Assembly: GCA_044892525.1 (NCBI GenBank)
Contig: CM097888.1
Span: 73,904,001 to 73,968,000 of the forward strand
Direction of reading: 5' to 3'
DNA length: 64,000 bases
Origin: Schmidtea polychroa
Lineage: Eukaryota
Part shown: positions 4,352-7,300 of the stretch, piece by piece
How positions within the stretch are numbered: position 1 is the first letter of the stretch
Layout: every line of letters begins with the position of its first letter
Translations under genes and position numbers: made by a program
Notes under the pieces: generated by a model
The model's input: the letters and a program-made list of their open reading frames with translations, nothing else
Told to the model about the DNA's origin: nothing
Databases searched by the model: none

Positions 4352-7300
4352 TTACCAGGTAAGCCTAACCTATTTCTTCTTTCAATTTCTGCGCTCGTTG
4401 GATCGATTCTCTCACACTGTAGTGCAATGTTCTCAACTGGCTTCATTTCTATCAATTTATCTACCGGATATGCTGGTAGTGGTTGTATAAATGATTTTGG
4501 TATGCATAATCTAGTGAATGTATCCTGGTTGCCATCATTAGAAAATGATTCCTTTATTAGTTGATAAATTTTCCATGTATCGGCTTGATTCCGTTCCTCC
4601 TCGTATGACGGTGCCGATTCCCCGATGTTCTCGTTGTCACTTTTGTCCTCATTAGAAGTAGTGGTTACATCAACATAACTTACCTTTCTCTTTTTCGTTA
4701 ATCGTGCTTTCAACGTTTCCAACTCTCGATATTGATGATGTGTTATAAAAAATCTGGCTAACAATGGTATACATCCAATAACCAACTTCCACGACAGACT
4801 TGTAATAGTGTATAATCTGTGTGTTGATAACACCTGCGAAACTATTACTTTAATCATGATTCCAATCACATATATTCCGATTAATCCCGCACAGGCTTGC
4901 CCGATAAACATAAATTTTCCCCAAATCTTTTTCATCGTATTAAACGTCGCCTTTTTGTAATGATCCACTGTTAATAAATAGTCGTAATTCACTTTTCCAG
5001 TTCCACTCGGGAGAATAGTGTCTACTATTTCCGTTATTACCCTTTCCTTTTTCGAGGGGAATAATAAGTTTCTGCGTGCTGCTTCAATATCATCACTTGA
5101 ATACATTCCACTTTGAGTCATGCTGTCTAGCGATGTAAAGTTAATTAGATATTCTAATTTTGTCAACTCCAATTTTTCTGGGACTTTCACCCCTCTATGA
5201 TCAGGTAGTGCAATCCATGATTCGGGCGTCAGGCGGTATAGTGGAGCCAATAATCTGTTGCACTGCAACGCTCTCGGTTTCGCGTCCTCCTCCAATAAAA
5301 TTCGTGTCACCGGCTCCATGAATCGTAGCTTCCCATTAACATTCACAGGCAGTTCATTTGTGCATTGATTGTATTTCATCAATTTAATAGGTACTGCCTT
5401 GCATTTATAACTATATAAGGCTTCACCAAGCATTCGAGCGAATACTCCATTCTCCGAAATCAACATTGGAGCAACTAGATTCGGGTTCGTGATAGCCATC
5501 GCCATTCTGTTTCGCAGGATTTCTTTGTTTAATTTGCAATCATTTAGTATGATTTCCCTGTACACACTTTCAATTGTATCTTGGCTAAAATGAAATAAAT
5601 AGTCAATCTTATTATTGAAATAGTTCGTTAGTTTAATTTCCTCTGCGTACAATTTTGTTTGAGCTTCTTCGACAACTTTCTTGGATAAATAAATTCCTTT
5701 ATAATTGGTCTCATAAACAGTTTGTCCACACTTCGTATTTACGCTCTTCCTTAAGAATCTCATCCCATCGTTTGGGGACATTGCCATTAAAACCGTTGGC
5801 GTTTTCTTCAAGCGTATCGGTGTGATTCTAAGTGTCATATTCATGACTGAGTTTAGCACTGTGCTTTCTGGTCTCTCTTGGATCTGCTCTCCCGTTATCT
5901 CTTTAAAAGGCATTGATTTTAAATGTGCTAAATTGCATTTTTTGGTATCAACTTCATATACCAGAATTGACTCACCTGTGTTGCAGCTTTTCTCCCTCAT
6001 GTTACAAAATGGATGGGTTTGCAATTTTCCCGTATCGTCATCGAATGATCCATCAAAATACCTTAATTCGGTTTCATATTCTTCTATCACGACGGTTTTA
6101 TCAATGACTGTTTGTCCTACTTTATACGCTTCACCCTCGCAATCGCCATTTGCCTTGATTATCCCCTTAACTGCTATAGTTTCACGAATTTTATAGTTTA
6201 ATTTAGCCTTCAAATTAATTTCTGAATTTATTTTCAGCTCTCCTGTTTGGAACGCTGCCAAACAGTTTTCCCGTGTCACCTCTATTACTCTTGGAATTGA
6301 GTGCATTTTGATTAATGACGAATGGCTCCATTTGCCACAGTAGAATATAAACGTAGTTCTTTTTGCTGTGCATTCTCTCACTTTCACTCGTCTAAATCCC
6401 GCTTCTTGGTATACGTGGTATGTAACTTCATTTGCCCATTTTAAGTTCCTCGGATATGCGTCTGGACACTCTGCTACATCTACTAGCGAATATACTTTTC
6501 CCATTTCTGTCTGGGAGCAATCGTACGCTACCAAGGACGTTGTGGTATTAATAACTCCTAAAATCACCAAAATAGACATGGTTAGCCATGGAAACATTAT
6601 TTTCCCTCTTTTCGGCTCATAATTTCTTCCAGTTGTCGCCGTCTCCGACTTTTGCACCAAGTTTTCCCATCCTCCATTACGCATAATCCAACCCGTCACA
6701 TATGTAATCGCCACTTCGGTGGCTTTTACTATCCATTTTTCCGATTTATCGCATTCCAAGCATCCATATACGCCAATTTCTAGAACAATATAAGCAAGGA
6801 CTGTTAGTACCACGTCTCTGTTCAGACCGTTCCTGATTAATCTCTTGACTACTGTTTCATCGCAAAATACCCTCTCTATGGTATTATCCTTTAGTACTAC
6901 TGGAAGCCGACTTTTTAATACCGCTGCAAGCTGATGTATGAGTTCATCGTCACAACTATTTCCTTCTTCCAGTGCATATAATTCTGTTACTAACCCTTTC
7001 AAAATTGATTCTGTTTGAGACATATTATTCAGATCCGTTTTTTCAACCACATTGGAATCTATTCTATCGTTCTCTTCGTTTCCACCCATTAATTCGATTT
7101 TACACCGCTTTCGACCATTCAATTTACTTTCCGCTTCTACAAAATTCGACTCACTTTTCACTCTTTCACTCACTAGTAGCTCGTCGGTTATATGGTTAGT
7201 TTCCTGATTTACTGAATCATTTTCGTCCACCTCCTCACTCGTAATTTCGTCTTGCTCGTCATTTATGCCTTCATCTTTTGGGTCATGCTCTTCTAACTCG

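Follow-up and report, generated by a model that had tools for sequence, protein, structure and literature searches.

The locus described here raises the question of how a retroelement that carries env in frame between gag and pol may deliver its envelope glycoprotein to the secretory pathway and yet keep Gag and Pol cytosolic. The window, a stretch of 64,000 nucleotides (nt) of the Schmidtea polychroa genome (assembly GCA_044892525.1, contig CM097888.1, positions 73,904,001 to 73,968,000), contains in its first 10.8 kb a single long terminal repeat (LTR) retroelement on the minus strand, recognised by Pfam and by sibling comparison, which by its domain content is an env-carrying Ty3/gypsy retrotransposon of planarian type. 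Between Gag and Env it encodes a Bcl-2-like domain followed by a hydrophobic segment, and an earlier note on this DNA had taken the segment for a basic-flanked Bcl-2 tail anchor that doubles as the glycoprotein signal peptide. The analysis below points to the opposite direction of reading, namely a glycoprotein signal peptide that would act as a de facto anchor of the Bcl-2 side. The motifs quoted in that note were all found on the minus strand, in a frame of 1,100 amino acids (aa) at 4306-7608, and the parts on which the argument turns are the following (KD, Kyte-Doolittle hydropathy; TM, transmembrane).

6658..7023, minus strand: Bcl-2-fold domain with eight predicted helices; NRDV replaces NWGR at BH1, W-x3-GGW at BH2
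6790-6858, minus strand (aa 251-273 of the frame): BH1-like motif
6655-6690, minus strand (aa 307-318): BH2-like motif
6592-6612, minus strand (aa 333-339): KRGK-IMF
6601..6612, minus strand: basic n-region KRGK, from the sequence
6550..6600, minus strand: hydrophobic h-region, putative internal signal and de facto anchor (KD12 2.77)
6535-6549, minus strand (aa 354-358): polar c-region NTTTS, with T/S at -3/-1
Between 6535 and 6534, minus strand: predicted signal-peptidase cut, placed by register with the N-terminal signals of proteins P0004, P0005, P0007 and P0011
4900..6534, minus strand: Env ectodomain, Monjiviricetes/gB-type fusion glycoprotein (PF24664, E=2.9e-90)
4828..4899, minus strand: Env TM (stop-transfer) segment, by hydropathy

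The evidence for Bcl-2 homology is weak from the single sequence and strong from family and fold. The window sequence alone matched Bcl-xL best in PDB at E=0.2 and had no Pfam Bcl-2 match, PF00452 included; the ESM Atlas search with it gave no usable match, the search of 5.8 billion proteins with aa 190-365 gave 0 of 315 candidates, and the search of viral contigs gave 0 loci. Two matches from the representatives search were rejected as repetitive unrelated proteins. At the family level PF00452 was matched at E<=1 by 11 of the 12 members of alignment A1 (best 2e-7), and a 12-copy profile reached Bcl-2 at 2e-4, three of the 12 copies having been picked with PF00452 in both cases; because of this preselection the profile was rebuilt from 11 copies chosen without any Bcl-2 model, and it still reached Bcl-2 at E=0.001. 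The AlphaFold model of the domain (two of five models failed) has eight helices and a predicted local distance difference test (pLDDT) score of 74. When it was compared by VIA with 48,161 chains, ranks 1-32 were Bcl-2-fold proteins without exception, headed by Bcl-2 of Kaposi's sarcoma-associated herpesvirus (KSHV; Z 11.2, root-mean-square deviation 3.4, 123 aligned residues), while the first unrelated chain had Z 6.6; Z values below about 13 are possibly non-specific for helical proteins, but here the match spans the whole domain and stands well above the unrelated rows. In the Foldseek comparison, a check that had been proposed for this region, the best match was human Bcl-2 (TM-score 0.58, E 4.7e-3) with nothing at E<=0.001, and identity in structural alignments to cellular and viral Bcl-2 proteins was 10-20%. 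Judged on family profile and model together, the domain almost certainly possesses the Bcl-2 fold, as had been proposed.

Alignments A1 and A2 show no variation at the tryptophan and the GGW of BH2, which agrees with the expectation that W-x3-GGW is conserved in copies. The ratio of nonsynonymous to synonymous substitution rates (dN/dS) of the domain is 0.12-0.39 between lineages (10 pairs with a value and one more saturated), and that of Env is 0.04-0.11 between families, so the Bcl-2 domain is under purifying selection which is looser than in Env. A tree built on 17 Bcl-2 cores placed the 10 domains from elements in one group with support of 87/87, which is below the threshold of the tool, and the host donor was not resolved in this set, from which intron-split genes of L067, L069 and L070 type were left out. 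The genome also contains several other kinds of Bcl-2-like sequences: a host-like gene with introns and a basic-flanked tail in scattered, near-identical copies (L070-L075, L083, L084 and many similar rows), a multi-copy 152-codon frame with a weak C-terminal tail (L077-L082), and seven clustered near-identical NWGR-type genes (L055-L061; G000:C4, ~89.9-90.8 Mb), the frames of which end soon after BH2 without a TM tail.

The unit in which this domain is translated was recognised from siblings. Sibling elements encode one polyprotein of ~3,330 aa in the order Gag, Bcl-2-like, Env, Pol; a 99% identical sibling has a frame of 3,329 aa and measures ~16.5 kb from LTR to LTR, and in L024 and L028, which are single natural loci, the BH2, YDC, protease (PR), reverse transcriptase (RT) and integrase (IN) GPY motifs all lie in one frame. 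In the genome search with a 165-aa query 150 matches were scored out of 1,179 candidates; all 150 match the query, with identity classes near 99, 82, 62, 58 and 55%, and 11 of them fall within open frames of at least 3,200 codons. Compared with a 98-99% identical sibling, the window copy shifts frame near nt 9540, 7605, 4330 and 1995. Programmed frameshifts as the cause of its several open reading frames (ORFs) were ruled out, since the siblings carry a single frame; therefore the translated unit is the ~3,330-aa Gag-Bcl2-Env-Pol polyprotein, and the ORF that had been regarded as the translated unit is only a fragment of a frame-broken copy. In contigs from 4 RNA runs over nt 4200-10790 no joint with minus-strand intron ends was found among the 15 shown (4 more are not shown), and transcript starts and strand are not readable from these contigs.

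The segment itself has a basic n-region, a hydrophobic h-region and a polar c-region with small residues at -3/-1, and this n/h/c pattern is kept in six families. The frame is free of stops from BH2 to YDC/YDY in 73 of 81 element frames, KD12 is at least 2.0 in 71 of the 73 in-frame junctions, and the -1 residue is S, A, C or G in 64 of 66 YDC frames, where the counts are not independent as some copies were fetched twice. The distance from BH2 to YDC varies from 53 to 81 aa, and the layout is constant in six autonomous families and in P0001, a protein with 39% env identity. In sister copies the PF24664 match starts within the hydrophobic segment. The most direct comparison was provided by free-standing homologues: the Env query matched seven proteins, three of which are chimeric metagenome records and four are glycoproteins of 633-666 aa with 25-26% identity, one of them from a beetle genome. 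The leaders of P0004, P0005 and P0007 consist of Met, a short hydrophobic run and small residues, after which comes xxAYDC; P0006 begins just before AYDC and is a shorter call, its cluster mate P0011 having a leader like the other three. Thus all four homologue clusters have a member with a signal-like leader, and xxAYDC stands at residue 19-31. BLASTP aligned the window TTS|LVAYDC, where LVAYDC begins at aa 359 of the 1,100-aa frame, on VHG|LIAYDC of P0004, and the alignment with P0007 runs through the h-region, so that the internal segment occupies the position of the N-terminal signal of free-standing homologues. According to this register and the n/h/c pattern the segment likely functions as an internal signal, in line with the role that had been assigned to it, and the predicted cleavage behind it is probable.

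The other half of the former interpretation needs to be turned round. In 9 of 9 junctions the h-region is preceded by a net charge of +2 to +3 and followed by one of -1 or 0, so that it is basic on the N-side only, whereas host-type Bcl-2 tails have +1 to +2 after the segment in all three that were read. Because the basic C-flank is missing and the uncharged core measures only 12-14 residues in one family (L086/L088), the segment is better read as a glycoprotein signal peptide acting as a de facto anchor than as a reused Bcl-2 tail anchor. In the window's clade the uncharged span is 26-27 residues long, and retention of the cleaved signal as an anchor of the Bcl-2 side is rated as rather probable. 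The idea of one segment with both roles is supported in this way, with the direction reversed, the membrane being that of the endoplasmic reticulum (ER) and the cleavage predicted; taken as a whole, the interpretation in the earlier note holds for the fold, BH2, the loss of NWGR and the signal role, and fails for the translated ORF and the basic-flanked anchor. In the window's family the spacing from BH2 to the segment is 30-32 aa, the same as in Bcl-xL, and the phmmer alignment to full-length Bcl-xL also continues through the hydrophobic segment; both speak against a purely viral ancestry of the segment, which may be viral or Bcl-2-derived.

A similar arrangement appears once more in the polyprotein. 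Apart from the core helix buried in the Bcl-2 domain, four hydrophobic segments are seen by hydropathy in each natural frame: the first signal, the Env TM, a post-integrase segment and a C-terminal TM.

778..842, minus strand: second internal signal-like segment after integrase, weak in the window copy (KD15 1.49)
3..777, minus strand: start of the second predicted lumenal glycoprotein, its C-terminal TM lying beyond the window edge
Window 3-842 (minus strand), L023:2776-4128, L024:2361-3701, L028:2045-3382, L125:754-2175 and L126:1057-2040: post-integrase signal and predicted type I glycoprotein

The post-integrase segment has n/h/c character with KD15 of 2.1-2.5 in the four other families scored, and a second signal with a C-terminal TM follows integrase in all five families read there, hence internal signals need no Bcl-2 origin. 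The predicted second ectodomain is beta-rich, ~200-330 aa long, contains sequons and in some families a Ser/Thr-rich stalk; in the L126 family it is shorter and falls outside the alignment with the others. It had no Pfam or PDB-profile match, and its model (pLDDT 37.5) is too poor for use. The top Foldseek rows obtained with this poor model were mostly FN3 proteins (TM-score <=0.17, E>=0.02), and the L126 family gave Atlas FN3 matches of 0.83-0.86, which are a lead only, so an FN3-like nature of the second glycoprotein is a weak lead. The alternation of signal, TM, signal and TM would keep Gag, the Bcl-2 domain and Pol cytosolic and both ectodomains lumenal.

According to these data a model can be proposed, and is considered on balance probable, in which an internal signal within one polyprotein is cut by signal peptidase and the Bcl-2-like domain is left anchored in the ER. 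The whole coding region would be threaded through the ER membrane in the order cytosolic Gag and Bcl-2-like domain, signal 1, lumenal gB-type Env, TM, cytosolic PR-RT-RNase H (RH)-IN, signal 2, lumenal glycoprotein 2 and TM. Signal 1 would insert co-translationally with its N-terminus in the cytosol and its C-terminus in the lumen, host signal peptidase would cut after NTTTS, and Env would be released into the lumen with the N-terminus LVAYDC, while the cleaved signal would remain as the C-terminus of the upstream product and thus as an ER-type anchor. The Bcl-2-like domain, together with any Gag still attached, would then be held on the cytosolic face of the ER, and Gag and two ubiquitin-like-looking repeats would be part of the upstream product if it is not trimmed by the element protease. 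The most likely job of the domain would be damping of host cell death or stress signalling in the element-producing cell. Sequestration of BH3 partners is a tentative suggestion with somewhat less than even chances; the predicted complex of the domain with the BH3 peptide of a host BAX-like gene (L067, the first 2-3 residues being intronic; alignment not used) scored 0.01 and gave no answer on binding. A more extended version, with a four-pass ER polyprotein cut at two internal signals, the first doubling as the anchor of an active captured Bcl-2 and as a Gag tether, the second freeing an FN3-like glycoprotein, and the module being useful enough to sustain an env-less, pol-less family, is doubtful as a whole.

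Such a family does exist: it is abundant and non-autonomous, keeps Gag, the Bcl-2 domain and the hydrophobic segment, and is without env and nearly all of pol.

L026:8066-9901 and L027:1-2133, also L033, L042-L045 and L054: copies of the env-less family

It accounts for ~53 of the 150 scored rows (an estimate by eye from the shape of the matches, with 7 of the rows read directly), and many rows have frames of 1,312-1,333 codons. In the L026/L027 copy the frame of Gag, Bcl-2 and the segment stays open through a remnant of the PR-RT spacer and on into the last part of the second ectodomain with its TM, and the LTR of the family is 98.6% identical to that of the window. Between the env-less family and autonomous relatives the dN/dS of the Bcl-2 domain is 0.26-0.29, which may reflect selection before the deletion.

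A number of observations weigh against the proposed processing. The window copy is frame-broken and unable to make the polyprotein. NWGR at BH1, the loss of which had been noticed in the window, is absent in every printed element copy and replaced by NRDV (as in the window), NRDK, DRDV, NKEV or DRDM, where the motif census selected frames for NWGR-replacing motifs and cannot count NWGR; the Bcl-2 domain is under roughly threefold weaker constraint than Env; and within the env-less family dN/dS was 1.33 and 0.52 with very few changes and no clear constraint. The signal pattern was judged by our own Kyte-Doolittle hydropathy and -3/-1 rule. In the L086/L088 family the short core is broken by Asp, and its role as a lasting anchor may be doubted; P0001 has T/M at -3/-1 of the assumed cut and KD19 of 1.01, a poor -3/-1 fit. 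In 50 of 66 YDC frames, that of the window among them, the segment begins with a Met or has one close to its start, so that env might be started separately in most families. Behind the Env TM there is a further, moderately hydrophobic stretch (KD15 1.9-2.1); if it spanned the membrane, Pol would be placed in the lumen, and a third crossing would have to be added to the model. Finally, the frequency of N-glycosylation sequons (Env 0.37 vs 0.54 per 100 aa) does not separate lumenal from cytosolic parts.

Among other explanations the one that survives best accepts the cleavage and assumes that the signal is then removed by signal peptide peptidase or by the element protease, as in the core protein of hepatitis C virus (HCV), leaving a soluble or Gag-bound Bcl-2-fold protein, a non-apoptotic scaffold like poxvirus A52, B14 and N1. 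The loss of NWGR in all families, the missing basic C-flank, the short Asp-broken core of L086/L088 and the helix-breaking P/G/N/T residues within the segment all agree with it, and A52, B14 and N1 were indeed among the fold matches with Z 7.5-8.4; however, BH3-binding cellular and viral Bcl-2 proteins scored higher (Z 10-11, although function does not follow from a common fold), the tryptophan motif of BH2 does not vary, and the 26-27-residue uncharged span of the window's clade is enough for a lasting anchor. This explanation is regarded as unlikely.

Still less probable is an uncleaved signal-anchor, somewhat similar to the leader peptide of foamy viruses, by which Env would be tethered at both ends and the Bcl-2-fold domain would form its cytosolic, particle-interior N-terminal part linking to Gag. 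The long uncharged span of the window's clade does resemble a TM, and no furin-type site was found in the Env ectodomain; yet the small -3/-1 residues are kept in register with free-standing signals, and a core of 12-14 residues as in L086/L088 is too short for a stable TM. It is counted in favour of this arrangement that gB-type errantivirus ectodomains are reported to have at their ends a signal peptide plus a TM or else a pair of TMs (PMC13524379). The weakest explanation, in which Env comes from its own subgenomic or spliced mRNA starting at the Met in front of the segment, with an ordinary N-terminal signal and the Bcl-2 fusion incidental for Env, is very improbable: it has on its side the Met of the 50 frames and the separate expression of env by other gypsy elements (PMC6431247), but Met is missing from the L088-subfamily segment, upstream of the P0001 cut and at the L028-family start, and Pol lies downstream in the same frame, so genomic RNA would be read through the segment anyway.

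The cleaved internal signal retained as an ER anchor thus is the preferred reading, and it would offer a testable answer to the printed puzzle of how an in-frame env between gag and pol reaches the secretory pathway while Gag and Pol stay cytosolic. It predicts that in planarian cells many element copies can supply the ER with a Bcl-2-fold protein, and it bears on reports of planarian retroelements protecting stem cells from apoptosis.

The remaining features of the element are listed below.

9820..10793, minus strand: 5' LTR, ~1 kb, with 98% identity to sequence present at both sibling ends; an N stretch begins at 10794
9794..9812, minus strand: putative primer-binding-site-like motif directly inside the LTR
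7605..9569, minus strand: Gag part with Retrotrans_gag, three CCHC knuckles and then a helical and ubiquitin-like-looking region (Pfam)
8616-8891, minus strand: CCHC knuckles, by motif positions
1976..4351, minus strand: protease, reverse transcriptase and RNase H (Pfam and motifs)
843..1997, minus strand: integrase with zinc finger, rve core and a GPY motif near nt 1049 (Pfam and motifs)

The 19-mer of the primer-binding-site-like motif recurs upstream of gag in 3 of 130 loci. Two similar ubiquitin-like-looking repeats around a helical region stand between the knuckles and the Bcl-2 domain (window ~7500-8100, minus strand); the ubiquitin-like match, Ubiquilin-3 with E=0.78, is a weak lead. 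All 14 cysteines of the window Env ectodomain are common to two sister families; the PDB sequence search of this ectodomain returned only centrin (E>=0.015), which was rejected. Agreement between the window copy and its sibling stops at ~L021:9300 and the 3' LTR was not found in L021, which is why the copy looks truncated or interrupted near this point; downstream of the first base of the window, at L021:5806-8206, a RING-finger ORF and a fragment of Polinton-like DNA polymerase B lie on the opposite strand. Upstream of a sibling element three tandem LTR copies are separated by TAA microsatellite (L022:449-3901), and the frequent presence of (TAA)n tracts at element ends suggests that the elements insert into microsatellites. 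Elsewhere in the window a decayed reverse-transcriptase fragment was found at 39014-39751 on the plus strand (RVT_1, E=0.0012), and the other 11 ORFs scanned from the rest of the window had no convincing Pfam match.

Among known systems the nearest are the planarian Burro elements (Burro/GYPSM1), giant gypsy-like LTR retrotransposons of Schmidtea mediterranea, in which a BCL2-like motif, an in-frame env between BCL2 and PR and the match of env to mononegavirus glycoproteins were described (PMC6431247). Both have one polyprotein with a Gag of three CCHC knuckles, a BCL2-like part, in-frame env and PR-RT-RH-IN, and to the Ubi/SUMO-like part of Burro the ubiquitin-like-looking region of the window family may correspond; Burro exceeds 30 kb with 4,873 aa (PMC6431247), while the window family has ~16.5 kb, 1-kb LTRs and a ~3,330-aa frame. 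In the strict sense of Burro the window family has the order Gag(3xCCHC)...BCL2-like, in-frame env and pol and lacks the size (>30 kb, ORF1 near 4,900 aa). Of the Burro accessories, MATH, BIR, ankyrin, dUTPase-like and Ubi/SUMO-like, none had a Pfam match in the window family frames scanned, and the ubiquitin-like part had only the E=0.78 match mentioned. In the Burro section of that paper membrane topology, signal peptides and a post-integrase glycoprotein are not discussed (PMC6431247).

The element also has the LTRs, gag, env, PR-RT-RH-IN order and gB/Monjiviricetes-type env that define GAG-ENV-POL errantiviruses. Six such Schmidtea elements are catalogued, with the same gene order and env type, and L113, L028 and L086 match by eye the env rows of Smed_errantivirus_1, _2 and _3 (PMC13524379). 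The window Env ectodomain is 77% identical to that of L028; since the 9-residue env motif of the window's family occurs in none of the 7 supplement files of PMC13524379, this family is placed as a sister to the catalogued ones. In the available parts of the paper the word polyprotein occurs 0 times and the 8 passages shown for "bcl" all read "subclade" (PMC13524379). The gene order with Bcl-2 next to env is already published. For the processing proposed here, a plausible variant, no printed description was found: in the literature searched, with Grohme 2018 and the Dev Cell 2026 Burro1 paper outside the search, neither a Bcl-2 tail doubling as env signal, nor a second internal signal with a glycoprotein after integrase, nor an env-less family keeping Bcl-2 plus anchor was found.

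The Atlas belpaovirus of Ancylostoma ceylanicum likewise has one Gag-Pol-Env polyprotein, with TM helices in its interior and two glycoproteins for which cleavage sites are predicted, but it is a Bel/Pao element with class II phlebovirus-like Gn/Gc at the C-terminus, and the passages available mention no Bcl-2 and no env between gag and pol (PMC9094657). Burro elements are expressed on piwi loss (PMC8532177), and Burro1 B-IAP, a RING+BIR caspase inhibitor with reported function, is anti-apoptotic cargo of a planarian LTR element (PMC13465017), whereas the activity of the Bcl-2-like domain described here is only predicted. If the extended version of the model is true, the Bcl-2-plus-anchor module would be the second anti-death cargo of planarian retroelements beside the inhibitor of apoptosis protein of Burro1. 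With cellular and viral relatives (Bcl-2, Bcl-xL, BAK, KSHV Bcl-2, BHRF1) the domain shares the eight-helix fold, BH2 and, in the window's clade, a segment ~30 aa after BH2; it differs from them by N/D-R/K-D/E-V/K/M in place of NWGR, by the lack of basic residues after the segment, and by its location inside a polyprotein, where the segment is internal and not terminal. A single ER polyprotein cut by signal peptidase is a strategy otherwise typical of flaviviruses and bunyaviruses, and in flaviviruses (capsid anchor) and HCV (core-E1 signal) a cytosolic protein ends in a hydrophobic tail that serves the following glycoprotein as its signal and anchors the upstream protein to the ER. Those are RNA viruses in which the upstream protein is the capsid, while the planarian element has a captured host-type death-regulator fold behind Gag.

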